64,000 bases of DNA from Burkholderiales bacterium (GTDB taxonomy: Bacteria; Pseudomonadota; Gammaproteobacteria; Burkholderiales; Burkholderiaceae_C), in assembly GCA_013044035.1 (NCBI GenBank), contig JABEVE010000004.1:7588-71587 (forward strand), read 5' to 3'. The notes beneath the pieces were generated by a model. That model searched no databases. It worked only from the letters and a program-made list of their open reading frames with translations, and was not told the origin of the DNA. Each line of letters opens with the position of its first letter. Positions within the stretch are counted from its first letter, which is position 1. The translations under genes were made by a program, and so were the position numbers. Below are positions 7,206-44,216 of the stretch, piece by piece.

Positions 7206-7625
7206 ATGGAGCGCACGCTCTCAATCATCAAGCCCGACGCTGTGGCCAAGAACTGCATCGGCAAGATCATCGACCGTTTCGAGACAGCCGGTCTCAAGGT
7301 CGCGGCCGTTCGCATGATGCATCTCTCGCGCGCCGAGGCCGAAGGCTTCTACGCCGTGCACAAGGATCGCTCTTTCTTCAAGGATCTGGTTGATTTCATG
7401 GTTTCCGGCCCTGTGCTGGTGCAGGTGCTGGAAGGCAGCAATGCCATCGCCAAGAATCGTGAGCTGATGGGTGCGACCGACCCGAAGAAGGCTGCTCCCG
7501 GTACGATACGCGCCGACTTTGCCGACAGCATTGATGCCAATGCCGTGCATGGTTCGGACAGTGCTGAAAACGCGGCAACCGAGATCGCCTTTTTCTTTCC
7601 TGCGAACTGGGTCTTCAGTCGCTGA
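7206..7625 (+). CDS. ndk: Nucleoside diphosphate kinase
   Basis: [28 protein letters not shown]. Confidence 0.97.
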
Positions 7626-7641
7626 TTCCCGCTGCGCGGCC

Positions 7642-8814
7642 ATGTCCCCCACCAACCTGCTTCAGTTCGACCGTGCCGGTCTGGTGGACTGGTTCGCCGC
7701 GCATGGGGAGAAACCCTTCCGTGCCCGCCAGGTGTTCCGTTGGATGCACCAGAGGGGCGTGGCCGATTTCGCCGACATGAGTGATCTGGCCAAGCCTCTG
7801 CGGGCCTGGTTGCGGGACGCAGCACGGCTCGAATCTCTGCCGGTGCTCGCCGAGCAGCGCTCGCGCGACGGCACAGTGAAGTGGCTGTTTGATGTAGGCG
7901 CAGGCGATGCCGTGGAAACCGTGTTCATTCCCGAGGCTCAGCGCAACACCCTGTGCGTGTCGTCGCAGGCCGGATGCGCCATGGCCTGCCGCTTTTGTTC
8001 CACGGGGGCGCAGGGCTTCAGTCGCAACCTGACCACGGCTGAAATCCTGGCGCAGCTCTGGCAGGCGGAGTTCAACATGCGGACATCCCTCGGACTTGCG
8101 GCCGGGGAGCGGGCCATCTCCAATGTGGTGATGATGGGCATGGGGGAGCCACTTCAGAATTACAGCGCCCTGGTTCCCGCGTTGCGATCCATGCTCGATG
8201 ATGACGGCTACGGCTTATCGCGTCGCCGCGTGACTGTGTCCACCTCGGGCGTGGTACCCATGATCGATCGTCTCGCGGCCGATTGTCCTGTCGCGCTCGC
8301 GGTTTCCCTGCATGCGCCGAACGATGCTTTGCGTGATGATCTGGTCCCGCTCAATCGCAAATACCCACTGGCCGAACTGCTGGACGCCTGCGAACGCTAT
8401 CTGGTGCATGCACCGCGTGACTTCATCACCTTCGAGTATTGCATGCTCGATGGTGTGAACGACGCTCCCGAACATGCTCGGCAACTGGTCCACTTGTTGC
8501 GCGATCGCATACCGTGCAAGTTCAACCTCATTCCCTTCAATCCATTTCCACAGTCTGGCCTCGCCAGATCGCCTGCCGGGCGCATGGCTGCATTCGCCCA
8601 GATCCTCCTGGACGCGGGCTTCGTTACCACAGTGCGCAAGACGCGTGGCGACGACATCGATGCCGCCTGCGGTCAACTGGCCGGCGATGTGCAAGACCGC
8701 ATTCGTCGCAAGCCGGGGCGTGCGGGCACGTCATCCGTGGTGCCGCCACAGACCATCATCCCCATTCGGGTGGAGACCGCTAGCCCGACCACCCACTTGT
8801 CCAACTTGGACTGA
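7642..8814 (+). CDS. rlmN: Dual-specificity RNA methyltransferase RlmN
   Basis: [20 protein letters not shown] radical-SAM motif, [16 protein letters not shown]. Confidence 0.96.
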
Positions 8815-23645: not shown

Positions 23646-23666
23646 TGGTGGGGAGGGGGACTCGAA
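23646..23666 (-). repeat. Distal att site: displaced copy of tRNA-Leu 3' end with 2-bp deletion
   Basis: TGGTG--GGGAGGGGGACTCGAA versus TGGTGCCGGGAGGGGGACTCGAA at 44130-44152. Confidence 0.9.
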
Positions 23667-28231: not shown

Positions 28232-28232
28232 T

Positions 28233-28249
28233 TTCGCCGCCGACTGAAT
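28233..28249 (+). promoter_or_regulatory. Island motif TTCGC-N8-GAAT, degenerate copy
   Basis: TTCGCCGCCGACTGAAT about 54 nt before ATG 28302. Confidence 0.5.
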
Positions 28250-28301: not shown

Positions 28302-28772
28302 ATGACCACCACTATCACCCATCCAAACCTTCAAAATCAAATCGACAACCTCGCCCGCCGAATTTATGCCGAAAATTATCTGCGTTCGCGCGGCGACAAA
28401 ATCGGCTTATTCGGAGCGCTGAAGGCCTGCAATTTTCAGAATTTCCACCAGTTTTTCGCATCGGGCAATGTGGATTATCAGAAGATACCCGAAGAAATCC
28501 AACGGGCTGTTTTCGCGGCCACCGTGGAAATCGCCCGGATCGAGGCCGAGAAACAAAACCCCGGCACGCCGCGCCACTTCCATATCACCCAGAAGCACAA
28601 CGGCGGGTATGAGATCGAGTATTGGAGCGATGCCGACCGCGCATTTATCTCGGAAACGCTGAATGCAAAAGAGAAAGCCTTGCTGCACGTTCTGCTCGGT
28701 GAGATTGCCGACCGTCGCCGAGTTAATCCGGCAACTCAATTACCCGAGCCGACCAACCCAACTCAGCATTAA
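28302..28772 (+). CDS. Hypothetical protein
   Basis: 156 aa ORF with AGGA RBS; more AT-rich than host genes. Confidence 0.7.
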   Translation: MTTTITHPNLQNQIDNLARRIYAENYLRSRGDKIGLFGALKACNFQNFHQFFASGNVDYQKIPEEIQRAVFAATVEIARIEAEKQNPGTPRHFHITQKHNGGYEIEYWSDADRAFISETLNAKEKALLHVLLGEIADRRRVNPATQLPEPTNPTQH

Positions 28773-28939: not shown

Positions 28940-29163
28940 TTTACATCGAACTCGAAATCACGCAGGAAGGCCTGGCGCTGGCAACGGTAGAGCACTACCA
29001 CTCCCCCGGCGCGTGCAGCTACCGCGCCGCCCACGTCCTGCCGCCTGACCTGGCCGAGCAGGCCAAGCAAATCGGCGACTTCCTGCTGCAGGACTACTCC
29101 AAGCGCGCCAGCCTGCCCGAACTTGGTTATCAGGCGCCAGGCGCTTCGCCTGCCGCTGAATAA
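28936..29163 (+). CDS. 75-aa hypothetical protein
   Basis: ATGA-coupled start, MIYIELEITQEGLALA... Confidence 0.6.
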   Translation: MIYIELEITQEGLALATVEHYHSPGACSYRAAHVLPPDLAEQAKQIGDFLLQDYSKRASLPELGYQAPGASPAAE

Positions 29164-29747: not shown

Positions 29748-31323
29748 ATTTCTGAGGGCGCTCAAAATGTTTGGGCTGATGTTTGGCGCTGGCTTTGCCG
29801 CATATATTCTTTTTTCTTTATTCGGCCACCCTCAAGCCGGCGCTGGGATTTTCGTGGCGGCGTTTTTGCTCGCCGGCGTTTTGGTCTGGACTGAGTTCTT
29901 CGCCGCGCCGGCGCCGGCGGTGCGTTCTGGGATTCGGGACGTGAGCGAGGATGCGGCGTATCTGCGCACCCTGGCCCAGGGCTTCGACCCGGAGCAGTTC
30001 ATCGACTTGCGCAAAGGCATCTTCATTGGCCTGGATGGCAACCGCAAGCCCATCTATCTGCCTCTCCAGACGCTCGACAAAAATCACCTGGAAATCTTGG
30101 GCGAGAGCGGAGTGGGCAAGTCGTCGTTGGCGGGAGTGCTGTTGAGCCAGCTCGCTGCATCGGGCGAAGCGGTGATCGTGTTCGACCCCAAACCGGACGA
30201 GAAACTGCCTGGCGTGCTGGCACGCCAGGGCGAAAAGCACGACTTTCCGGTCGTGGTGATCGACCTGCGGCACACGGCCAGCTTCCCCCAGATCAATCCA
30301 TTCCATGGATGCCGACCAGACCAGGTGGAAGAGCTTTTGCAGGTGGCCTTGGAGCTCGGCAAAACCGGCGACGCAGGGGTGGATTTTTATCGCGGTGGCG
30401 ATCGCGAGGCAACCTCATGGATTGCCGAAGCCGTGGCCGCAGACCCCTCCCGCAGCCTGCCTGACATCATCAAGGCGGCGAGTGATGATGAGGCGATCAC
30501 CGAGAAAGAAAACCTGTGGCGCGAGCTGCGGCAGTTGGGCCGCATCAAGGCCTTTTCGACGCGCGAGCAAGGCATCGACCTGGCGGCGTTGCTAGAGCAG
30601 CCGGGCGGCGTCGTGCTCTATGTGATGGGCTCGACGACCAAGTTGGAAATCGGCTCGGCGCAAAAGCTGCTTTTGCAGCGCGTGCTCCAGGTGCTGGAGG
30701 ATCGCAGCGACAAGTCGAAGCCAGTGGCCTTGTTCCTAGACGAGCTCAAATACCTGTTGAGTCCAGCAGCCCTCAGGGCCGCAGGGACTATTCGTGACCG
30801 CAATTCGCACCTTGTATTTGCGCATCAAAGCCTCGGTGACTTGGACGACTGCCCGGGCTTGAGCCCCAAGGCTGTGCGGGGCGCGATCTGGGGTAACAGC
30901 GGCATCAAGTTCGCGTACAAGATGCTCGACAGCGCAACGGCCTTGGAGCTCTCGCGCCTGGCCGGCGCGTCGCGCGCCGACGTGCAGACGATGAGCAACA
31001 CGGCCAACGACAACGGCGGAAGCACAAACACATCATGGACCCAGGCGGCCCGCGAGTTCATGCCGCCCCACATCTTCAGCCACCTGCCCAAGCCGGCAGG
31101 TGGCGAGGCATCAGTGGGTGTCGTGTTCGGGCTTGGGACCGCGTTTTATCTGTCCACCCGCTGGCTCCAGACCGGCGAAACACCCGCGCCGTTGCGCGTC
31201 GAAGAGCCGGCCGACCAGGCCGACGCCGCACCGATTTCGCATGCCGCTGAATCAGGTCAAGAGGCACCCGAAGCCCAGGCCGAAGCGGCCCGCGCTGACA
31301 GCCTCGAAGACTTGTTGAAGTGA
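29740..31323 (+). CDS. mobB: Type IV coupling protein, CloDF13 MobB-like
   Basis: Two N-terminal TMs, Walker A GESGVGKS, VIVFDPK, Walker B LFLDE, FAHQSLGDL; directly before a MOBC relaxase. Confidence 0.8.
   Translation: MLKFLRALKMFGLMFGAGFAAYILFSLFGHPQAGAGIFVAAFLLAGVLVWTEFFAAPAPAVRSGIRDVSEDAAYLRTLAQGFDPEQFIDLRKGIFIGLDGNRKPIYLPLQTLDKNHLEILGESGVGKSSLAGVLLSQLAASGEAVIVFDPKPDEKLPGVLARQGEKHDFPVVVIDLRHTASFPQINPFHGCRPDQVEELLQVALELGKTGDAGVDFYRGGDREATSWIAEAVAADPSRSLPDIIKAASDDEAITEKENLWRELRQLGRIKAFSTREQGIDLAALLEQPGGVVLYVMGSTTKLEIGSAQKLLLQRVLQVLEDRSDKSKPVALFLDELKYLLSPAALRAAGTIRDRNSHLVFAHQSLGDLDDCPGLSPKAVRGAIWGNSGIKFAYKMLDSATALELSRLAGASRADVQTMSNTANDNGGSTNTSWTQAAREFMPPHIFSHLPKPAGGEASVGVVFGLGTAFYLSTRWLQTGETPAPLRVEEPADQADAAPISHAAESGQEAPEAQAEAARADSLEDLLK
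31236..31252 (+). promoter_or_regulatory. Island motif TTCGC-N8-GAAT upstream of mobC (within mobB 3' end)
   Basis: TTCGCATGCCGCTGAAT, identical to copies at 33321 and 38462. Confidence 0.6.
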
Positions 31324-31373: not shown

Positions 31374-32114
31374 ATGCCCATCATCGCAGACCCCAAACAA
31401 CGCATGGAACGCGCTGAGCAAAAGAAAACTTTGCTGCTGCGTTTTTTGCGCGAAGAGCTCTACACCACGCCACATGTTGCAGCCAAGGTCATGGGCGTGG
31501 CGCCGCGCGCTGCACGGGCCACCGTGGCCGCCCTTGAGGCGGCCGGCTTCGTCAAGCGCCACCGCATCCCGCTCGTGCCCGGCCTCCCCCCCTTGGTTCT
31601 CATCGGCATCACGCCGTCAGGTCAAAGCATGGCGTTCGACCCGTCAACAGAAGTGCCCATCGAGCGCAGCTTCGAGCCCGGAAGGTTCAGCTTGAACTAC
31701 CTCAAGCACACGCTCGAAACCCAGCAGCTTCGCATCCAGGCGCAATACGCCGGTATCACCAAATGGGTGAGCGGCGACCGCATGGCTGCCGTGCAAAAGG
31801 GCATCAAAAAGCCCGACGCCGTGGCGCTCGATGCGGCCGGACGGCGCGTCGCAATCGAGGTCGAGCGCAGCGTGAAAGGCCCGAAAAGCTATGCAGACGT
31901 GCTGGCCGGTCACCTGACCGCCATGCATCAAAACAAGTGGCAGCGCGTGATCTGGTCAAGCCCAGACGCCAAGACCCGAGACCGCGTGAAGACCTTGATT
32001 CTTGCCGTCAAGCGCGTGCGAATCCTAGGCATCGACACACGCATCGACCCAGCCAAGCATCACCAAAATTTAGCGTTTTGCGAGCACAAAGAGTTCGTCC
32101 ACCTGCTCACCTGA
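31374..32114 (+). CDS. mobC: MOBC-family relaxase, CloDF13 MobC-like
   Basis: LRFLREEL N-terminus, HTL, and PDAV..AIEVERSVKG (D..ExE) motif. Confidence 0.82.
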   Translation: MPIIADPKQRMERAEQKKTLLLRFLREELYTTPHVAAKVMGVAPRAARATVAALEAAGFVKRHRIPLVPGLPPLVLIGITPSGQSMAFDPSTEVPIERSFEPGRFSLNYLKHTLETQQLRIQAQYAGITKWVSGDRMAAVQKGIKKPDAVALDAAGRRVAIEVERSVKGPKSYADVLAGHLTAMHQNKWQRVIWSSPDAKTRDRVKTLILAVKRVRILGIDTRIDPAKHHQNLAFCEHKEFVHLLT

Positions 32115-32754: not shown

Positions 32755-33320
32755 CCAAGGGGAGCTCGGCTTCGGGCGGTGAACCTGCCCTCGGCCCCAG
32801 CCTGCCCTAGGGGGCAGTCCGTGGCTCGGCTCCACTTCGCCCTGGGGGGCTCAGTGGCCCGACCTGCGCTGAGGGAACGTCCTTCGGACGACCCTCGCTT
32901 GTGCCGTGCGGGCTCTGCCCCCACTGGAAGCGCTCGGCTTGGGCCTCGCTTGCTCGGGCGGTGCAGGGGCTCGGCTGCGCTGGCGCTTGCCAAGCCATGC
33001 CCCGTCCACTCGCATTCCAGCGGCCCCCCCGAAACAAACCGGTCTGGACGACCGGCACCAGGCAAGCCGGGCGCTGCGGCCCGGCACCAAGCGCCACCCA
33101 AACGCCACTGCCAACCGTGCTTGCTCGCACCGCGCCCTGCAAGGCAGACGGGCTCCGCCCGAAGAGGGCCTGCGGCCCGATGCTTGCCCAGAGGCGACGC
33201 CCTGCGGGCGGGACGTTCGCCAACTGCAAGGGCCTGCGGCCCAGCCCCAGGCCGTGGACAAGTGACGTGCAAACCAAGGTTGCTCACTTGCCCACCGCCA
33301 CCACCCAGAGCGCCGCGCAT

Positions 33321-33337
33321 TTCGCATGCCGCTGAAT
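33321..33337 (+). promoter_or_regulatory. Island motif TTCGC-N8-GAAT
   Basis: TTCGCATGCCGCTGAAT, followed by hairpin, GGAG RBS and ATG 33382. Confidence 0.65.
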
Positions 33338-33381: not shown

Positions 33382-34209
33382 ATGATCGACATCCACCAGC
33401 ACATCAACGCGGCACGCGCTCGGCTCGACGCCATCGCCCAGCGTCTCGGCGTCGAGCCCTTTGTCATGTACCTCGGACTCGCCTTCCTCATCACCCTGGT
33501 CTTGGCACTTCTGATCGTGCCGAGCCAGAGCACCCCACATCCATCTTTGCCCGCGCCGTTGCCGATGGCCTCGCCGCCGAAGCAGCCGGCCGCCACCACG
33601 GGTGCAGCCGCCCCAGCGTCAGCACCCGCATCCCTGATGCAAGCCGAGCTCCCCGCGCTGACCTTGAGCCCAAACCAAGCCGTTGAATCTGGGGCGTGGC
33701 AATTGAGGGTGGAAACCGTCGCAGCCGTGCAGGGTCAAGACCCCGCGACCCTGCCTGCTCAGTTGATCGGCACCATCGTGCAGTCGGCGCCCAGCGCGAG
33801 TTTTTCCGGCGCCATCCCGAGCTCGATTGCCCCGTTCATCACCCCAGGGCAACCAGCGCGTCTTGCCTACAGCTTTGACTTCGACGCCCCTGCTGCTGGC
33901 TCCTACCTGTTGACGGCTGTGCTGGGTGGCAAAGCCTCCGGCGAAGTCCGCCTGACGCTCGACGACCGGGCCGACACGCAGGTCTCACTGACTCGCAAGT
34001 ACAACGTGATCTGGACACCCGACGCGCCGCCCGTGACGATCTCATCCACCGTCAACCTCGCGGCTGGGCTGCACGCCATCAAGGCCGTGCTCGACACCAC
34101 CGCGACGACCGACGCCGGCGCAGCGCCCGTGCTCGACTTCTACATCAAGCCACAGGCCGCGAGCTTGCCCACGGCCATGGTGCCGATGTGGCCGGCGGCT
34201 CGGCGCTAA
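33382..34209 (+). CDS. Membrane-anchored protein with Pro/Ala linker and PA14-like beta-sandwich
   Basis: TM YLGLAFLITLVLALLIV; FDAPAAGSYLL, VRLTLDD, VNLAAGLHAIKA resemble PA14 strand pattern. Confidence 0.6.
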   Translation: MIDIHQHINAARARLDAIAQRLGVEPFVMYLGLAFLITLVLALLIVPSQSTPHPSLPAPLPMASPPKQPAATTGAAAPASAPASLMQAELPALTLSPNQAVESGAWQLRVETVAAVQGQDPATLPAQLIGTIVQSAPSASFSGAIPSSIAPFITPGQPARLAYSFDFDAPAAGSYLLTAVLGGKASGEVRLTLDDRADTQVSLTRKYNVIWTPDAPPVTISSTVNLAAGLHAIKAVLDTTATTDAGAAPVLDFYIKPQAASLPTAMVPMWPAARR

Positions 34210-34631: not shown

Positions 34632-34643
34632 GCGCCCGCTGAT

Positions 34644-34660
34644 TTCGCATGCAGCGGAAT
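34644..34660 (+). promoter_or_regulatory. Island motif TTCGC-N8-GAAT
   Basis: TTCGCATGCAGCGGAAT about 51 nt before ATG 34710. Confidence 0.6.
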
Positions 34661-34709
34661 GGTTTCGAGCGCCCGGAATCCCGAGCGCCATCCCCAAAGG
34701 ACCGAAGCC

Positions 34710-35258
34710 ATGCAAACCAAGCAGCACACCCTCATCATCATCGCCGTCGCCATGGCCCTTGCGCTGGGCACCGCCCATGCCCAGGGCATCAAGGGCATCA
34801 GCATGGACGCTCCCATGACCGCGCCAGTCCCCTCTGCCCCCGACCACGGGGCGTGGGCGCTCGACATCAGCACCACCAGCTATCACCTGCGCCAGTGGGC
34901 CAGGGACAGCCTCAATCAGGACAACCCAGGGCTGGGCGTTGAGTACCAGTACAGCCACAACTGGGGCGCGGCCGCGGGCTTCTACAAAAACAGTTACAGC
35001 CGCACCAGCGTCTACGCCACAGCCACCTACACCCCGCTGCACATCAGCCTGCCAGAAGGCTTCTCCATGGCCGCTGGCGGGCTTGCGGGCGCCATCAGCG
35101 GCTACACCAGCGCCGAAGCCCCCGACCGGCCCTTGATGGCCGCCGCGCTCCTGGAAATCCGTTCGCGGCAGGGGTATGGCATCAACCTGGTCGGCGTGCC
35201 CAACGCTGGGCAGTCGGCCGGCTTCATCGGCCTGCAACTGGTGGTGCCACTGACCTGA
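34710..35258 (+). CDS. Exported small beta-barrel outer membrane protein, PagP-like
   Basis: Signal peptide (AHA); SYH..NQDNPGLGVEY..GFYKNSYSRTS pattern reminiscent of PagP-like barrels; alternating C-terminal strand. Confidence 0.55.
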   Translation: MQTKQHTLIIIAVAMALALGTAHAQGIKGISMDAPMTAPVPSAPDHGAWALDISTTSYHLRQWARDSLNQDNPGLGVEYQYSHNWGAAAGFYKNSYSRTSVYATATYTPLHISLPEGFSMAAGGLAGAISGYTSAEAPDRPLMAAALLEIRSRQGYGINLVGVPNAGQSAGFIGLQLVVPLT

Positions 35259-35269
35259 GCGCCGCGCAT

Positions 35270-35286
35270 TTCGCATCCGCCCGAAT
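35270..35286 (+). promoter_or_regulatory. Island motif TTCGC-N8-GAAT
   Basis: TTCGCATCCGCCCGAAT just after the upstream stop codon, then hairpin GTGTGCCGGC..GCCGGCACAC, RBS and ATG 35337. Confidence 0.65.
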
Positions 35287-35336
35287 CCGTGTGCCGGCCC
35301 AGGCCGGCACACGCCAACACCCAAAAAGGAACCGTC

Positions 35337-36809
35337 ATGCAAACCAAACAACGCAGCTTCACCCTCGCCCCGCTGACCCTCGCCCTGGCGCTGGCCTTCG
35401 CGTCCCCGCTGGCCCATGCCGATACAGCCGGCGGCACGGTCTCCGGCTCTGGAAACGTGACCACCCAGGACAGCTCGGGCAACCTGGCGTCTGGCAACGG
35501 CGCCCTGGCTGCCGTCCAGAGCAACAACACCGCCATCGGTCAGCAAGCCCAAGCCAACGAAGGTGCCGCAACCGCCGTGGGCGCTGGCAGTCTGGCAAAC
35601 CAGAGCAGCACCGCGCTCGGCGCTGCGGCCACCGGCCAGGGCGTCGGCTCGGTCGCGGTCGGTGCGGGGGCGCAAGGGCTTCAAGGATCGTCAGTTGCGG
35701 TCGGCCAAAACGCAACCGCCAGCGTTGCCGGCGTCGCCATTGGTGCGGGCGCCAGCGTGCCCATCGCGCCAGGCGGCGCGGGGACTGCTGGTGTGGCGCT
35801 TGGCTATCAAGCCACGAGCACAGGGATTGACAGCGTTTCGCTCGGCGCTGGCAGCACGGACTTAGGCCTTGCAGGTGTTGTGAGCGTGGGCACCACATCC
35901 CAGCAGCGCCGCATCATCAACCTGGCCGCCGGTCAGGCGCCCACCGATGCGGTCAACTTGCAGCAGCTCGACGCCGCCGCTCAGGCCGCGCAGGTCTACA
36001 TCAACACCGCCACGGCCGGCGCAGTCACCACGGCGAACAGCTACACCAACCAGCAAATCACGGCCCTGCAAAACATCATCAACAGCGCCACGGCATCGGG
36101 CCTGTGCAAGTACAACCCCGCCGGAGGCATCGTGTGCGGCACCAACACCACCGCCGCCGCTGGTGCCGTCGCGCAGGGCAATGGTGCATCAGCCAACTAC
36201 GCCGGCAGCCTCGCCATCGGCCAGGGCGCAACCATCACCGCGCCCACTGGCAATGACGGCCTGACCACCGGAGCCATCGCCATCGGCAACGGTGCCCAGG
36301 CCAATGCCGACCCCGCAACGGCCATCGGCTTTCAAGCCGACGCGGCAGGAGCCAACTCGGTTGCTCTCGGCTACCAAGCCCAGGCCTACGGCACCAACAG
36401 CGTGGCGCTCGGCGCGGGCAGTGTCGCCAACCGCCCCAACAGCGTGAGCGTGGGCAGCGGCGCGCAGCAACGCCAAATCACCAACGTCGCCCCCGGCACG
36501 CAAGCGACCGATGCGGTGAACCTGGGCCAGTTGCAGCAAGCCACCGCTGGCCTGCTCGGCCAGGCCGACACCTACGCCGCCCAAGGCATCGCCATGGCCG
36601 CAGCCCTCGACATCGCGCCGCTGTACGGCCCGGATGGCTACAGCCTGAGCGCAGGCCTCGGCAGCTACGGCGGGCAGAACGCCGTGGGCATCGCGTTCTC
36701 GCGCCGCACGGCTTACTACCAGTACCCCGTGGCCTGGACCGTGGGCCTCGGCTTCAACGGCGGCAGCGGCGCGGCAGTGGGCAAGGTCGGGGCGAGCATC
36801 GGCTGGTGA
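35337..36809 (+). CDS. YadA-like trimeric autotransporter adhesin
   Basis: Signal peptide; Hep/Hag head repeats (xAIG/xALG); two neck motifs RRIINLAAG..TDAVNLQQL and RQITNVAPG..TDAVNLGQL; C-terminal anchor ending ASIGW. Confidence 0.9.
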   Translation: MQTKQRSFTLAPLTLALALAFASPLAHADTAGGTVSGSGNVTTQDSSGNLASGNGALAAVQSNNTAIGQQAQANEGAATAVGAGSLANQSSTALGAAATGQGVGSVAVGAGAQGLQGSSVAVGQNATASVAGVAIGAGASVPIAPGGAGTAGVALGYQATSTGIDSVSLGAGSTDLGLAGVVSVGTTSQQRRIINLAAGQAPTDAVNLQQLDAAAQAAQVYINTATAGAVTTANSYTNQQITALQNIINSATASGLCKYNPAGGIVCGTNTTAAAGAVAQGNGASANYAGSLAIGQGATITAPTGNDGLTTGAIAIGNGAQANADPATAIGFQADAAGANSVALGYQAQAYGTNSVALGAGSVANRPNSVSVGSGAQQRQITNVAPGTQATDAVNLGQLQQATAGLLGQADTYAAQGIAMAAALDIAPLYGPDGYSLSAGLGSYGGQNAVGIAFSRRTAYYQYPVAWTVGLGFNGGSGAAVGKVGASIGW

Positions 36810-37237
36810 GCCTAGACCATGCCCCGGCTGCGCCGGGGCATGCCTTCAGTGGGTTCGTGGCGGCGTGCATGGGGTCGGTGCCGCGTGTGTGCGGCGGCCT
36901 GCTGTGGGCCTTGCTGCTGTGGTCGGAGGTCTCCCTCACAACCAGGGTGATGCCTTCGGCCCGCGCTGCTGCGGCTTCGCCCCGAGCCCCGACGGGTCTC
37001 AGCCCTTCGGGGCTGCATCGCTATCACAAGGCATCGGCGTCAGCGCCGCCGACAACACCACTGCCACGGCCAAGGCAGTGCCCGGCTTTGCTCGGCACCC
37101 CAGGCGACGCCCGGCTACGCCCGGCTAAGGCTAGGCCCAGCCAGTGCCGCCCATGGCGGCAGGGATACGGCGCGGTGAGGCCGCGCCGCCAGGGCTCTGC
37201 ATCGCTGACTTGCGCGGGCCGGTTTGCCGTGGTCGAC

Positions 37238-37440
37238 CCCCTGTGTTGACAAGCCCGGCTGAAGCCGCCCGCGACTTTCTGCGCCTTTCTGGGATGGCGT
37301 CAGTCCCGCCAGCCCGCAAGCGGGCGCTGCGCGGCCTACGGCCTGTCATGCCTTCCGCAACCCCTCATCGCCTACGGCGACCGGCTTGAAAGATCGGCCA
37401 ATGAGGGCGGCTCCATCCGGGCAGAACATCAACACAGGGG
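37238..37440. other. Long stem-loop (about 33-bp imperfect stem, structured loop); ssi/Frpo-like candidate
   Basis: CCCCTGTGTTGA (37238-37249) pairs with TCAACACAGGGG (37429-37440); inner GCCCGGCTGAAGCCGCCC pairs with GGGCGGCTCCATCCGGGC with 2 mismatches. Confidence 0.6.
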
Positions 37441-37447
37441 ATCAATC

Positions 37448-37732
37448 GTGACCACAGCAAACCTCTACACCCCCGCGCAAGCCAGCCATTCCGAGCCCCT
37501 TCACGCCGAGGGGCTCACCACCCAGGCAGGTGGCAAGGCCAAACCAACCCAAAACCTGCCGTCTTTCGTCATCAATCAGGCCTTGGAATTCATGCAAAAG
37601 CAGGCCGCAGCCAAGGGCGTGAGCGTGAGCAAAACCGAGATTCTGTTCACCATCACCCAAGACCCGAAAGGCAACACAGCCAAGCGTTTTGAAGCGCTTT
37701 GCGACCTCGGCTTCAAGGTCGTTTTGAACTGA
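37448..37732 (+). CDS. Hypothetical protein
   Basis: 94 aa, GTG start just after the stem-loop. Confidence 0.55.
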   Translation: MTTANLYTPAQASHSEPLHAEGLTTQAGGKAKPTQNLPSFVINQALEFMQKQAAAKGVSVSKTEILFTITQDPKGNTAKRFEALCDLGFKVVLN

Positions 37733-37791
37733 TTTCAACCATCAACCAGGAGCACAACATGACCGCCACCAGCCCCGCCACCCTGGCCGAT

Positions 37792-37808
37792 TTCGCCTGG
37801 CGATGAAT
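37792..37808 (+). promoter_or_regulatory. Island motif TTCGC-N8-GAAT, degenerate copy
   Basis: TTCGCCTGGCGATGAAT about 59 nt before ATG 37866. Confidence 0.4.
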
Positions 37809-37865
37809 GGCAGTGAAGGCATCGGTCAGGCCCGCGTTGGCGAACTGACCCATTGAACTGAAAGG

Positions 37866-38174
37866 ATGACTGAAATGGCTAACTTGGAAAAGATGTCTGA
37901 GAACCTGCGGGCCGCACTTTCGCGGTCGGGGCAGGCCTCGATCGATCTGCACGCCTCGAATGATGACCGCGGCCTGAAGGATTTGATCATCGTTGAACGC
38001 GGTGGCGGCCAAATCGCGGGCGCGAGGCCGCTGGGCAACGTGCACATCGGAATCAATCGCGCGCCGACCACCAGGGCGCTCATCAGGGCGCAGCTGCGCG
38101 AATTGTTCGCGGCGCATGGCTTGACTGGCCGCGATTTTTTTGATGATGAGCCCATCATTTACGAATACGTCTGA
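37866..38174 (+). CDS. Hypothetical protein
   Basis: 102 aa with AAAGGA RBS. Confidence 0.6.
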   Translation: MTEMANLEKMSENLRAALSRSGQASIDLHASNDDRGLKDLIIVERGGGQIAGARPLGNVHIGINRAPTTRALIRAQLRELFAAHGLTGRDFFDDEPIIYEYV

Positions 38175-38230
38175 TCACGCAGCCCGGCCATCGCGCCGGG
38201 CATCACCAGCACCGCCGCCAGGAGCAAGCC

Positions 38231-38446
38231 ATGACCTACAAAACCATCACCCGCGCCCAATTTCTCGCCGAAGCTCGCGCGTGGGACATCAAGCGTCGCG
38301 CCATGCGCAGGGCCGCGTTTTTCGAGGCGATCTTCAACACATTCATGGCCGTCTTCAGCATCGTGTTCATCGCCTTGTCCTGCGTCGCCATCGCCGGCCC
38401 CGGCCTGCTGGCCCTGGCCGCCTTTTTCGGCATCGCCCCGACCTGA
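38231..38446 (+). CDS. 71-aa membrane protein
   Basis: AGGAG RBS; basic N-terminus and long hydrophobic C-terminal half. Confidence 0.65.
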   Translation: MTYKTITRAQFLAEARAWDIKRRAMRRAAFFEAIFNTFMAVFSIVFIALSCVAIAGPGLLALAAFFGIAPT

Positions 38447-38461
38447 TCGCGCCGCCCGCGT

Positions 38462-38478
38462 TTCGCATGCCGCTGAAT
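38462..38478 (+). promoter_or_regulatory. Island motif TTCGC-N8-GAAT
   Basis: TTCGCATGCCGCTGAAT, then hairpin, AAGGAG RBS and ATG 38530. Confidence 0.65.
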
Positions 38479-38529
38479 CACCATGCCGGCGCGTGCCGGC
38501 ACACCACACACCAACCAAGGAGCATCACC

Positions 38530-39042
38530 ATGCAACACACCAAAACCATCCTCACCCTCTCCAGCCTGGCCCTCGCCCTGGCCCTGGGCGGCTGCGCCGG
38601 CGTGCCTCCGGGCATGGGAGGTCAGTATCAGTCTTCGGCCTACAACTACAGCACCAGCCAGGCCCAACAGGTCCAGCAGGTGCAGCTGGGCACGGTGCTG
38701 GCCGTGCAGCAAGTCGTCATCCATGCCGGCCAAGGCGTGACCGGCGCTGGCGCGGGGCTCGGCGCCGTCGCAGGCGGCTTCGTGGGCAGCCGTGTCGGTA
38801 ACGGCAATGGGTCCACGGTCGGGGCCGTCATCGGCGCTCTTGCAGGCGCTGCTGGAGGCAACATGGTGGCGGGTAACGCTTACCAACAGCCCGGGTTGCA
38901 GATCACGGTGCGACTGGACAACGGCCAGACCATCGCCGTCACGCAAGCCTCCGATGTGCCCGTTCGAGCCGGGCAACGTGTCGAGCTCTTGGGTAGCCCC
39001 TACGGCTGGAACTCAACCGCCCGTGTCGTTCCCATCGGTTGA
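38530..39042 (+). CDS. Glycine-zipper 2TM outer membrane lipoprotein (SlyB/Pcp-like)
   Basis: Lipobox LGGC; GAGLGAVAGGFVGS..GAVIGALAGAAGG; C-terminal LQITVRLDNGQTIAVTQ..GQRV. Confidence 0.85.
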   Translation: MQHTKTILTLSSLALALALGGCAGVPPGMGGQYQSSAYNYSTSQAQQVQQVQLGTVLAVQQVVIHAGQGVTGAGAGLGAVAGGFVGSRVGNGNGSTVGAVIGALAGAAGGNMVAGNAYQQPGLQITVRLDNGQTIAVTQASDVPVRAGQRVELLGSPYGWNSTARVVPIG

Positions 39043-39057
39043 TCCCGACCCGCGCGT

Positions 39058-39074
39058 TTCGCATCCGCCTGAAT
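39058..39074 (+). promoter_or_regulatory. Island motif TTCGC-N8-GAAT
   Basis: TTCGCATCCGCCTGAAT just after upstream stop; AAGGAG RBS and ATG 39110. Confidence 0.65.
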
Positions 39075-39109
39075 ACCAGTGCCGGCGCAACCAACCAAGG
39101 AGCCTCACC

Positions 39110-39529
39110 ATGCAACCCATCCAAACCACCAAACCCGTCATCACCCTTGCCCTTACCCTGGCCCTGGCCGCCGCCTTCGGCGGCTTCTGGGTGGGCCGTA
39201 ACCAAGGCCAGGAACAGGCCAGGCAACAGGTATACGAGCTCGCCAAAGAAGCCAATCCACTGTGGCGGTTCGGTGGCCACCAAGCCCCGACTAAAGACTC
39301 TCAAACTCTGAAACTCAGGGTCGCGCAGGGGAATATTCGGGCGGCGCTCACCCTGTCAGATCGCTACCTGATTCAGGCCTCGAATACATCAGGAAAGGGC
39401 AGCCATGATGACCATGAGATCAAACTTTTACTTGAGGCTTTCCAAGCCCAGGACCAGGCCTACTCAATCCTGTATCAAAACATCCTCCGCCTGGCCTCCC
39501 CGGACCATAAGCCCTGGCCGATCTTCTGA
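39110..39529 (+). CDS. Hypothetical protein with N-terminal signal/anchor
   Basis: MQPIQTTKPVITLALTLALAAAFGGFWVG leader then helical soluble domain. Confidence 0.7.
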   Translation: MQPIQTTKPVITLALTLALAAAFGGFWVGRNQGQEQARQQVYELAKEANPLWRFGGHQAPTKDSQTLKLRVAQGNIRAALTLSDRYLIQASNTSGKGSHDDHEIKLLLEAFQAQDQAYSILYQNILRLASPDHKPWPIF

Positions 39530-40176: not shown

Positions 40177-40710
40177 TTACTGGCAGCTCGTTGGCAGATA
40201 TTGTTGCGGAATTGTCGAAGTGGCATTCGCGCCTGTCGAAGCGGCGGTGGTGCAAGTCCATTTGGCGCCACCATTCGTCGTTTCCATAATCAAGGTTTTC
40301 CCAGCAATGGCGCTGCTGATGCCACTTGTACCGGCAGCGTTAAATGTCATTTTCAGATCAAGGCCGTAATCAGTCCCAGCTGCAGCGCCGGCGGGAAGTG
40401 TTCCAGCAAACGGAGTTGCAGCCATGGAGTTAACATAACGACCGCTTTGAGTCTGAACATCAACGCACGTTGTCGTTGTGCAAGTGGCACCTGCAACATT
40501 AAGTGTCAGATTTTGAAACCCACCATTTGTATTGAAATATTCCATGAGTGAGGTTTTTGCGCCATCGGATAAGCTCAGGCCCTCAGCAACCTGCGCTCTT
40601 GCGGTGTATTGCATGTATTGAGGAATGGCGATGGCCGCCAAAATGCCGATGATGGCCACCACGATCATCAATTCGATCAGGGTGAAGCCCTGTTGCAGTT
40701 GTTTCTTCAT
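40177..40710 (-). CDS. pilA: Type IVa major pilin (PilA-like), island-borne
   Basis: Class III signal [27 protein letters not shown]; [10 protein letters not shown]; C-terminal WTC...LPTSC disulfide loop; AGGAG RBS. Confidence 0.93.
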
Positions 40711-40830
40711 CAAAAACTCCTAGGTGAGTTGGTTGTGTGCTGCGGCTTCTGCGCCATGAAAAACACCGGTATAGACGCTTGGCTGCAGCAGGGTTGGCGT
40801 CAATCCCCCCTGAAGGGGCAGGTGAAGTCG

Positions 40831-42716: not shown

Positions 42717-43928
42717 TCACGCCCGCATCTTCACCACATCAGCCCCAGCCTTGAGCTTGTCCAGATAGTCCCCCCAGGCCTGCATCATCGCTGCCCGCTC
42801 TTCGAGGTAGCGGGTGCGGTTGTAGGCGCGGCCCAGTGGGTCGCGCACCGCGTGGGCGAGCTGCATTTCGATGACCTCGACCCGATAGCGCAGCTTCTCA
42901 TCCAGCAGGGTGCGCGCCGTGGCACGGAATCCGTGGCCGGTGACAACATCCCCGCCGAAACCCAGGGTTCGCAGCGCAGCAGTGACCGCGTTCTCACTCA
43001 TGCATCGCTCTCGCGTGCGCGGCGACGGAAACACGAAGCGACTACCACGCGTGAAGGGGTGAAGGTCCTGCAAAATCTTCCTGGCCTGCAAGGGCAGGGG
43101 CACGATGTGAGGCTCGCGCATCTTCATCTTTTCGCCAGGGATGCGCCACTCGTTACGGTCGAAGTCAATCTCTGACCACTCGGCCTGTCGCAGCTCACCA
43201 GGCCGCACAAAGAGCAGCGCTTGCAGATGGAGCGCCGCCCGGACCACTGGCCCGCCGGTGTAGCCATCGAACGCCCGCAGCATCTTGCCCAGCTCAGCAG
43301 GGTCCAGCACGGCGGCGCGATGCTGCTCCACAAGCGGCTTGAGCGCCCCGCGAAGGGCAGGGGTAGGATCAACATCAGCGCGGCCCGTGGCGACCGCATA
43401 GCGCATCACCTGGCCGATGATCTGATGCACGCGCCTGGCCGTTTCGCCCAGGCCACGCGCCTCGATGCGCTGGAGCACGTTGAGCACGTCAGGTGCGCGC
43501 AAGCCGCGCACGGACTTTTGGCCGATGATGGGGAATGCGTTGGCTTCAAGGCGCTTGATGAGGTTGCCGGCGGTGTTACTGGACAGGGTAGGGGCGCGCC
43601 TGGCGTGCCATTCCCTGGCGATGGCCTCGAAGGAATCGGAGACCACGCCCGCCGCCTTGGCCTTGCGCATGGCCGAGGGGTCGATGCCATCGAGCAACTG
43701 CTCGCGAATCTCCGCAGCGCGATCACGAGCACGCTTGAGGGACACAGCAGGATAGACCCCGAGTGACAAGGTGCGGTCCTTGCCGTGGAAGCGGTAGTCC
43801 ATGCGCCACCACATTGCGCCGTCAGGCCGCACGATGATGAAAAGGCCAGCGCCATCGCTCAAGCGATAGGGCTTTTCTCCAGGCGCTGCGCGCTTGAGCG
43901 CCGTGTCCGTCAACAGGTTGTTTGCCAT
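42717..43928 (-). CDS. int: P4-type (IntA-like) tyrosine integrase
   Basis: Arm-binding KPYRLSDGAGLF..LSLGVYPAVSL; catalytic VRPGEL, HGFR, LAH, AYNR; next to tRNA. Confidence 0.95.
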   Translation of the reverse strand: MANNLLTDTALKRAAPGEKPYRLSDGAGLFIIVRPDGAMWWRMDYRFHGKDRTLSLGVYPAVSLKRARDRAAEIREQLLDGIDPSAMRKAKAAGVVSDSFEAIAREWHARRAPTLSSNTAGNLIKRLEANAFPIIGQKSVRGLRAPDVLNVLQRIEARGLGETARRVHQIIGQVMRYAVATGRADVDPTPALRGALKPLVEQHRAAVLDPAELGKMLRAFDGYTGGPVVRAALHLQALLFVRPGELRQAEWSEIDFDRNEWRIPGEKMKMREPHIVPLPLQARKILQDLHPFTRGSRFVFPSPRTRERCMSENAVTAALRTLGFGGDVVTGHGFRATARTLLDEKLRYRVEVIEMQLAHAVRDPLGRAYNRTRYLEERAAMMQAWGDYLDKLKAGADVVKMRA

Positions 43929-44129: not shown

Positions 44130-44216
44130 TGGTGCCGGGAGGGGGACTCGAACCCCCACGCTTTTAAGGGCGGCGGATTTTGAGTCCGCTGCGTCTACCG
44201 ATTCCGCCATCCCGGC
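44130..44216 (-). tRNA. tRNA-Leu (CAA), 87 nt with encoded CCA
   Basis: GCCGGGA/TCCCGGC acceptor stem, anticodon loop CTCAAAA, long variable arm, GGTTCGAGTCC T-loop. Confidence 0.97.

Follow-up and report, generated by a model that had tools for sequence, protein, structure and literature searches.

A shared upstream and leader segment before unrelated exported proteins of an integrative mobilizable element

Mobilizable islands such as SGI1 and the MGI elements carry activator-box regulons, those of the AcaCD and SetCD boxes. The erp genes of the Borrelia cp32 prophages are described as descendants of one promoter, leader and localisation sequence joined to diverse mature parts that recombine (PMC10016077). 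In the Staphylococcus aureus lpl cluster, the evolving unit reaches from the 3' end of one open reading frame (ORF) across the intergenic spacer into the 5' part of the following ORF (PMC2568036). Here we describe a related arrangement in a Thiomonas-like Burkholderiales bacterium. The DNA under study, referred to hereafter as the window, is a 64-kb stretch (GC content 64%) of a 3.7-Mb host genome, and the element in question is an island of approximately 20.5 kb within it. Four genes of the island, named A (ORF 34710), B (ORF 35337), C (ORF 38530) and D (ORF 39110), have unrelated mature parts and share a stretch of about 140 bases that holds a promoter-like motif, a stem-loop, the ribosome site and the signal peptide. 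This stretch was probably kept alike by recombination between the repeated units of the island.

Four exported proteins and the motif before their genes

A first-pass annotation of this DNA had singled out the four ORFs as exported proteins with a homologous leader module, and all four were confirmed as described:

34710..35258, + strand: gene A, 182 amino acids (aa); signal peptide encoded by 34710-34781, MQTKQHTLIIIAVAMALALGTAHA followed by QG, with cleavage between AHA and QG
35337..36809, + strand: gene B, 490 aa, YadA-like trimeric autotransporter adhesin; signal peptide encoded by 35337-35420, ending in PLAHA before DT
38530..39042, + strand: gene C, 170 aa, glycine-zipper (SlyB/Pcp-like) lipoprotein; leader encoded by 38530-38592
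39110..39529, + strand: gene D, 139 aa; N-terminal hydrophobic segment at about 39110-39175, a signal peptide or signal anchor

All four proteins start with MQ..K. Inspection and a simple classifier gave Sec features for A (AHA before Q), B (AHA before D) and C (LGG before C), with the lipobox of C reading LALGG before the lipobox cysteine, residue 22; by the same means the junction in D (AAA before F) is possibly that of a signal anchor. The mature parts are unrelated, as the annotation had held: BLASTP of residues 29 to the end (E <= 1e-3) placed them in separate families, and their Pfam results were separate as well. The mature domain of A, WALDISTTSYH.RQWARDSLNQDNPGLG, had no match in Pfam or NCBIfam, and its family was found only in Thiomonas and acid-mine-drainage sequences. 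The Pfam matches of B are to YadA head and stalk, and that of C is to a glycine zipper. D belongs to a fast-evolving family with a C-terminal WPIF for which Pfam and NCBIfam hold no family, and PHROGs gave no match for A or D. A PagP-like barrel for protein A is conjectural; an AlphaFold2 model built from 9 sequences was unusable (mean pLDDT, the predicted local distance difference test, 43).

Each of the four genes follows an island motif, as had been claimed. Exact copies of TTTCGCATSCNSCNGAAT begin at 34643, 35269, 38461 and 39057, each 35-51 nucleotides (nt) upstream of the ATG, and further copies precede genes whose products are not exported:

34643..34660, + strand: motif heading gene A (TTTCGCATGCAGCGGAAT)
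35269..35286, + strand: motif heading gene B
38461..38478, + strand: motif heading gene C
39057..39074, + strand: motif heading gene D
31235..31252, + strand: motif heading the gene of the non-exported Replic_Relax-type relaxase (31374-32114)
33320..33337, + strand: motif and stem-loop heading the gene of a 275-aa protein without an N-terminal signal peptide (33382-34209)
37791..37808, + strand: motif heading the variable-slot gene 37875-38174 (99 aa, not exported)
28232..28249, + strand: weaker copy heading a 156-aa ORF (28302-28772)
29144-29161: further degenerate copy

The motif is a property of the island. All 6 exact copies of TTTCGCATSCNSCNGAAT in the 3.7-Mb genome lie inside it and all are on the + strand; a weight-matrix scan of the host genome found no strong sites outside the island, and shuffled sequence gave 0.28 copies per window at up to 2 mismatches. 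By pattern search, a cluster of motifs was present in 1 of the 401 genomes of the bacterial family, with no clustering in the other 400. Wider scans returned matches at about the rate of chance. Across the whole genome-contig collection at least 120 single matches from all phyla were obtained, about what is expected for 14-16 fixed bases, and none of them looked like the accessory arm of the island. A metagenome scan with the exact 18-mer gave 21 singletons, again consistent with chance, while one based on the lipoprotein alignment yielded no confirmed relatives. The blastn search of the module against plasmids gave only YadA-stalk matches, and a scan of the + strand of the module and arm for a sigma-70 consensus promoter gave none.

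Relatives of the island, reached through the contigs of close lipoprotein C homologues, were found at nine further loci: L128 and L129 (both Thiomonas sp. X19), L130 and L131 (both on one metagenome contig), L132, L134, L157, L159 and L160. The ten loci, the window included, hold 46 motif copies on the + strand and 0 on the - strand. The consensus is cgCGCR-TTTCGC-wT-N4-CyGAAT, and the distance from motif to ATG is mostly 44-57 nt.

The shared segment from motif to signal-peptide end

The likeness of the leaders exceeded that of host signal peptides, the background to which the first-pass annotation had said it might prove equal. Against 183 host signal peptides collected with a simple rule-based classifier (16,653 pairs), each of the six leader pairs fell in the top 0.1-0.7%, and the mean leader score of the quartet was 42.2 compared to 19.6 ± 2.6, with 0 of 5000 random host quartets scoring as high, figures that apply to four genes picked after the fact. 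At the DNA level, codons 1-15 (45 bases) had a mean identity of 70% (58.3 ± 5.6% for host pairs) and the 30 bases upstream of the ATG one of 65.6% (54.0 ± 7.5% for the host). The DNA before C and D had been described as nearly identical, and the 25-mers preceding these two genes do agree at 24 of 25 positions.

Alignment of the motif-to-leader DNA, in the window and in the nine related loci, gave homology running from the motif to the end of the signal peptide. Local alignments between gene families start at a median of -63, which is the motif, and end at a median of +58 (90th percentile +82); the homology thus stops at the leader/mature junction. Upstream of the genes, units B, C and D can be aligned over both motif and 5' untranslated region (UTR), and A has the motif in common with them. 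Alignments of exported with non-exported units stop before the ATG, at a median of -6, and only exported genes have homology that reaches into the coding sequence. Over +1..+45 the identity between families is 72-74%, compared to 78% for orthologues and 58% for comparisons with non-exported units or among host signal-peptide pairs. A glutamine codon (Q; CAA or CAG) stands second in 30 of the 33 exported units, against none of the 16 non-exported ones and 8 of the 183 host signal peptides. Besides this Q, the exported leaders have an n-region rich in T, K, H and P and a LALA-type core. Between +4 and +30 the exported units contain 4.7% G and 83% A+C, and this A/C-rich composition confines the early codons to K, N, T, Q, H and P.

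Exact tracts are shared between leaders of different gene families:

49 nt, in the hydrophobic core and cleavage region: A-family leader of L128 with B leader of L129
30 nt, upstream of and over the ATG: C (L131) with D (L132)
27 nt, upstream of and over the ATG: D (window) with C (L134)
25 nt, in the hydrophobic core: C (L128) with D (L129)
21 nt, upstream of and over the ATG: C (L130 or L132) with B (L157)

Among host signal-peptide pairs (n = 3000) the longest shared word had a mean of 7 nt and a maximum of 13 nt; the cross-family mean here was 11.9 nt. L128 and L129 are two islands of one genome, and other B leaders differ within the 49-nt region. In L130 and L160 a small exported protein, denoted 'a', with 53% identity between the two mature parts, stands behind two kinds of unit, an A-type unit with the leader MQTKPIIT in L130 and a GCCGGC-type unit with the leader MKQKILIA in L160. 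Because of the exact cross-family tracts and the two unit types before 'a', the leaders read as mosaics across gene families, pointing to gene conversion that would have been seeded by the repeated promoter unit. L128 also carries a frameshifted second copy of gene A (L128:6338-6745) beside the intact one (7275-7790), and it is the intact copy that is donor or recipient of the 49-nt tract in common with the B leader of the other island.

The units have a common anatomy downstream of the motif. GAAT is followed, at a distance of 6-7 nt, by a T (39 of 46) and then a purine (46 of 46), the purine being 24 nt from the first T of the motif, and a GC-rich stem-loop starts exactly at this conserved T-purine step. 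It is followed by an A/C-rich linker, a Shine-Dalgarno (SD) sequence and the ATG, all predicted to be unpaired. The stem-loops of the window are:

34667..34689, + strand: A-type stem-loop, starting at the conserved T-purine step 6-7 nt after GAAT
35289..35312, + strand: B-unit stem-loop, GTGTGCCGGC-CCAG-GCCGGCACAC
38485..38500, + strand: C-unit stem-loop, GCCGGC-GCGT-GCCGGC
39081..39086, + strand: 5' arm of the D-unit stem-loop remnant; the 3' arm, which the orthologous L131 unit retains, is missing here

The stem-loops fall into two main types. Of these, the A-type has 4 covarying pairs among 10 aligned A and 'a' units from 8 loci; the GCCGGC-N4-GCCGGC type is common to the B, C and D units, one 'a' unit and the unit of a non-exported 71-aa gene (L134). 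No Rfam family matched in the units. In the window the leader RNA of the D unit (39075-39109), whose 3' stem arm has been lost, is predicted to be unstructured, and in the D-unit linker of L132 (2130-2218) an A/C-rich word of about 13 nt (acagcaacgcaac) is tandemly triplicated.

The motif also heads the relaxase gene, the gene of the 275-aa protein, NikA-like genes and the variable-slot genes, none of which encodes a signal peptide. Motif, 5' stem-loop, A/C-rich linker and SD, found also before genes for a relaxase, a membrane protein and the variable slot, are therefore the general expression unit of the island and not an export module. This divides the earlier proposal of a reusable unit of motif, ribosome-binding site and signal peptide placed before unrelated domains: the homologous segment is real, but the motif unit is not specific to export. 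From its conservation we infer that the unit is the element's own promoter joined to a 5'-terminal stabilising hairpin and an unstructured ribosome-loading region, with the T-purine step 6-7 nt past GAAT as the probable start of transcription.

Gene order in related islands and the setting of the element

The related islands have a common arm with the order coupling protein, relaxase (TrwC or Replic_Relax), small genes, A, B, a 93-aa gene, DUF6573, a variable gene, the 71-aa gene, C, D, cargo and integrase. The order A-B-...-C-D is kept in all of them, each gene with its own leader subtype; the four genes are fixed syntenic components of an island family and not a variable array. The first-pass annotation had read the shared leader as a cassette-capture route with no integron, and these fixed positions and gene-specific leader subtypes speak against that reading. 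A survey of the related islands for other passengers behind the same leader, as it had proposed, came upon no case of one leader before a different exported passenger, and the position-D proteins of five islands turned out to be one divergent family.

Three islands lack gene B, and the right-hand endpoint of the missing stretch differs in each. In window coordinates, L128 lacks exactly 35259-36816 and L160 lacks 35259-37140, and in L131 the region 35269-36795 is replaced by filler, with a degenerate motif copy and the final ~20 nt of the gene left over. The differing endpoints indicate independent deletions and not site-specific excision. No attC-like site or second recombinase was found, and the P4-type integrase at tRNA-Leu is the only recombinase. 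There is thus no IntI-type recombinase beside an array; instead of an attC at the 3' end with identical excision boundaries there is a repeat that lies 5' and is followed by SD and ATG; and instead of variable cassette order and content there is one hypervariable slot, which holds non-exported genes. Site-specific capture is not supported.

That slot, between DUF6573 and the 71-aa gene, is truly replaceable. It holds non-exported ORFs of 99-143 aa from at least six unrelated families:

37875-38174 of the window; L128:9317-9640; L129:9263-9622; L130:9288-9641; L134:9224-9655; L157:5730-6116: variable-slot ORFs

Between islands the homology is lost after the motif and before the ATG and returns 10-25 nt past the stop codon. 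The flanks are conserved, the motif forming the left one and a CCCGGCC...GCCGGG hairpin the right one. The slot proteins had no PHROGs or NCBIfam match, and the window copy had no Pfam match. Of the neighbouring DUF6573 gene, which codes for ~155 aa in related islands, a deletion has left ~8 codons in the window (37760-37808); homology to L131 ends at 37782. A fusion of the A domain to the N-terminus of the 71-aa protein on the other side of the slot (window 38231-38446) was considered and rejected: the ~50-aa N-terminal segment of some A-domain proteins weakly resembles that protein, with a BLASTP match (35% over 49 aa, E = 1.8) that is suggestive at most and not significant.

Outside the island family the genes have other leaders. 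Lipoprotein C homologues of 75-95% identity all come from Thiomonas or acid mine drainage, whereas distant C homologues carry ordinary, different leaders, and distant A homologues start either with an ordinary leader or with a longer cytoplasmic and transmembrane segment. The possibility that each gene has the same leader in non-island contexts, raised by the first-pass annotation, was thus not borne out for A and C. The TTTCGC motif was absent from the C-homologue contexts L162, L163 and L165 and from the A-homologue context L165. The A mature domain is also joined to a cytoplasmic/transmembrane segment of ~50 aa in proteins of ~202 aa (P0133, P0146-P0157 and similar; L165:8001-8612).

The sister island families L163 and L165 have repeated motifs of their own before many genes, and their exported leaders are ordinary and dissimilar. 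The shared leader is accordingly the history of one island family and not a requirement of such promoters. The motif of L163, a contig from Logan SRR28285704, is CTGCGCATCGCCGCTGCAT, and that of L165 (Thiomonas sp. X19, LT605203:3780047-3796658) is AATTTCCGC-N5-GCCTATG; a hairpin and an A/C-rich linker follow most of the L163 copies and several of the L165 copies. The sister motifs suggest a wider class of island-specific promoters.

The island itself has the make-up of an integrative mobilizable element. It is bounded by 16-bp direct repeats of the 3' end of tRNA-Leu, at which its integrase is sited:

23651..23666, no strand assigned: left attachment (att) repeat, a 16-bp exact copy of the tRNA-Leu 3' end at 44137-44152
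42717..43928, - strand: P4-type tyrosine integrase (Arm-DNA-bind_3, Phage_int_M, Phage_integrase), adjoining tRNA-Leu at 44130-44216

A RepA-like AAA_25 protein, RepC, a Toprim protein and a type IV coupling protein encoded on the island were detected directly, and a 246-aa protein was assigned the Replic_Relax domain via its L129 ortholog. With a relaxase and a coupling protein present, and because no mating-pore genes were seen among the scanned ORFs of 23.6-44.2 kb, the island is classed as an integrative mobilizable element. The family to which it belongs occurs in Thiomonas and acid-mine-drainage betaproteobacteria. L131 lies at the same site as the island of the window, with tRNA-Leu and two-component/efflux genes, and has a TrwC relaxase. 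The surface-protein arm is paired with TrwC (~1070 aa) in L128, L130, L131 and L134 and with Replic_Relax (~247 aa) in the window, L129 and L157. A type IV pilin gene (Pilin and N_methyl domains; window 40177-40713, - strand) lies in lower-GC cargo between gene D and the integrase.

Origin of the shared leader and relation to known systems

We consider it probable that the leaders descend from a single ancestral promoter-leader segment and have been kept alike by recombination between the repeated expression units of the island. Under this proposal the element would be split into many short transcription units, each headed by an element-specific expression unit of about 70 nt that serves exported and non-exported genes alike, and in which the motif, a pyrimidine-purine start, a GC-rich stem-loop that may stabilise the 5' end, an A/C-rich, G-poor and unstructured linker, SD and ATG follow one another. 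The repeated promoter and 5' UTR would provide the homology where conversion starts and, signal peptides being interchangeable, tracts running through them would be tolerated.

Several observations weigh against this proposal or limit it. The motif is not known to fit any sigma-70, sigma-54 or extracytoplasmic function (ECF) consensus, and no candidate factor was identified. The anatomy of the units, the synteny, the reach of the homology and the mosaic tracts are direct observations, whereas promoter function, start site and stabilising role are deduced from conservation. Part of the amino-acid likeness of the leaders follows from their extreme A/C-only codon use. The islands sampled are kin, so that the unit counts stand for non-independent events in about five exported gene families. 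Mean identity between families is 0.739 within an island and 0.724 between islands, a negligible gap, and because of it conversion must be regarded as episodic or mostly old and not continuous. The strongest tracts, finally, come from a single genome with two islands.

The alternative closest to the original suggestion is that the unit of motif, ribosome-binding site and leader is a docking platform which recurrently captures new surface domains, an integrase-independent cassette system that diversifies the surface repertoire. The whole B unit of motif, UTR and ORF (35259-36816) is precisely present or absent between islands, the slot behind one motif copy holds at least six unrelated ORFs, the mature domain of A is found with N-termini of several kinds, the ~50-aa cytoplasmic/transmembrane extension among them, and 'a' occurs behind two unit types. 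Yet order and leader subtype of A to D are constant in all related islands, a leader before a different exported passenger was not found, and the position-D proteins are one family; the losses of B have three endpoints, with remnants retained in L131, the replaceable slot holds non-exported genes and is uninformative on leaders, and neither an attC-like site nor a second recombinase came to light. We regard recurrent capture as unlikely. In another reading, the repeated units of about 70-140 nt would act as portable homology through which ordinary homologous recombination inserts, deletes and swaps whole ORFs and N-terminal export modules, anchored in the promoter and independent of the integrase, and the units may also make up a private transcription system; this we think doubtful. 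The three island motif variants (TTTCGC-N8-GAAT, CTGCGCATCGCCGCTGCAT and AATTTCCGC-N5-GCCTATG) could be readable by a factor encoded by the island or by a helper.

Selection offers two further accounts. Convergence without common descent of the leaders would follow if an unstructured, G-free initiation region were favoured, with codons of A and C only (K, N, T, Q, H and P), on top of the ordinary rules for signal peptides. The composition of the exported units fits this, non-exported island genes being intermediate (15.5% G, compared to 22.8-27.4% in the host), as do n-regions made almost solely of Q, T, K, H, P and I. However, the exact cross-family tracts of 21-49 nt include the G-rich h/c region, Q is the second residue in nearly all exported units though K, N or T would fit the same constraint, homology is unbroken from motif through UTR into coding sequence, and the sister islands with similar A/C-rich linkers have ordinary, dissimilar leaders. 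Composition does not account for the remaining likeness because of the long exact tracts, and convergence as the whole explanation is decidedly unlikely. It has also to be asked whether the shared 5' coding sequence is itself a functional signal under purifying selection, as a target of a small RNA, a CA-rich binding site of the Hfq/Crc type or a mark for an export or sorting factor. Its cross-family similarity over +1..+45 is as high as that of orthologues (0.72-0.74 compared to 0.78), and the CA-rich stretch covers the SD and the start codon. Against this, leaders vary within families (MQTK, MQHK, MQIK, MHRN, MNKQ, MKQK) while the gene is retained, Rfam gave no match, there is no candidate factor, and the mosaic of exact tracts is left unexplained. 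We judge this last account very improbable.

If a single ancestral segment has indeed been kept uniform through recombination, the island is a mobile element that supplies unrelated surface proteins with one promoter-plus-leader segment, and, as far as our limited literature search goes, it may be the first such case beyond the spirochaetes and Firmicutes. Its motif, 5' hairpin, G-free linker, SD and leader would make up a compact natural expression-and-export cassette. Whole mobilizable islands of acid-mine-drainage betaproteobacteria seem to be organised by a promoter class not characterised before, and identification of its factor would explain how the islands switch on. For annotation the lesson is that alike N-termini in such islands do not make the proteins related.

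In comparison with the AcaCD/SetCD regulons, the island is likewise mobilizable, shows no mating-pore genes of its own among the scanned ORFs and has a repeated box at many operons, those of outer-membrane or surface components included. The motif sequence is unrelated, however, no helper or activator was identified, and the motif was not found elsewhere in the host genome. With integron cassettes the island has in common short genes in the same orientation, a boundary repeat, some presence and absence of genes and one replaceable slot. It differs in having no IntI-type integrase, in a repeat that is 5' and promoter-like, in a conserved order and in variable endpoints of insertions and deletions. 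As in the lpl cluster, the recombining segment takes in the spacer between genes and the leader end of the ORF that follows, and it is the central regions that vary in lpl. The lpl genes are paralogues of one family, however, whereas the mature domains of the island are unrelated, and in the island the conserved unit leaves out the 3' end of the gene before it.

The closest analogue is the set of erp (OspE/F-related) genes of Borrelia burgdorferi cp32 with their 'upstream homology box'. There too, genes of a mobile element, in that case a prophage plasmid, have a conserved promoter/operator and leader before diverse mature parts that recombine. Erp is one allelic locus on many replicons, whereas the island genes occupy several syntenic positions in one proteobacterial element of ~20 kb. 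The island unit, for which no binding protein is known, also serves non-exported genes and carries a 5' stem-loop. The erp products are all lipoproteins, in contrast to the mixed passengers of the island, which are an autotransporter adhesin, a lipoprotein, a putative outer-membrane protein and a small anchored protein. Erp-type sets are also defined by co-expression of their members through a shared regulator; of their other features, shared upstream DNA, a shared leader on independent mature parts, and recombination tracts, of 49, 30, 27 and 25 nt, are found here.

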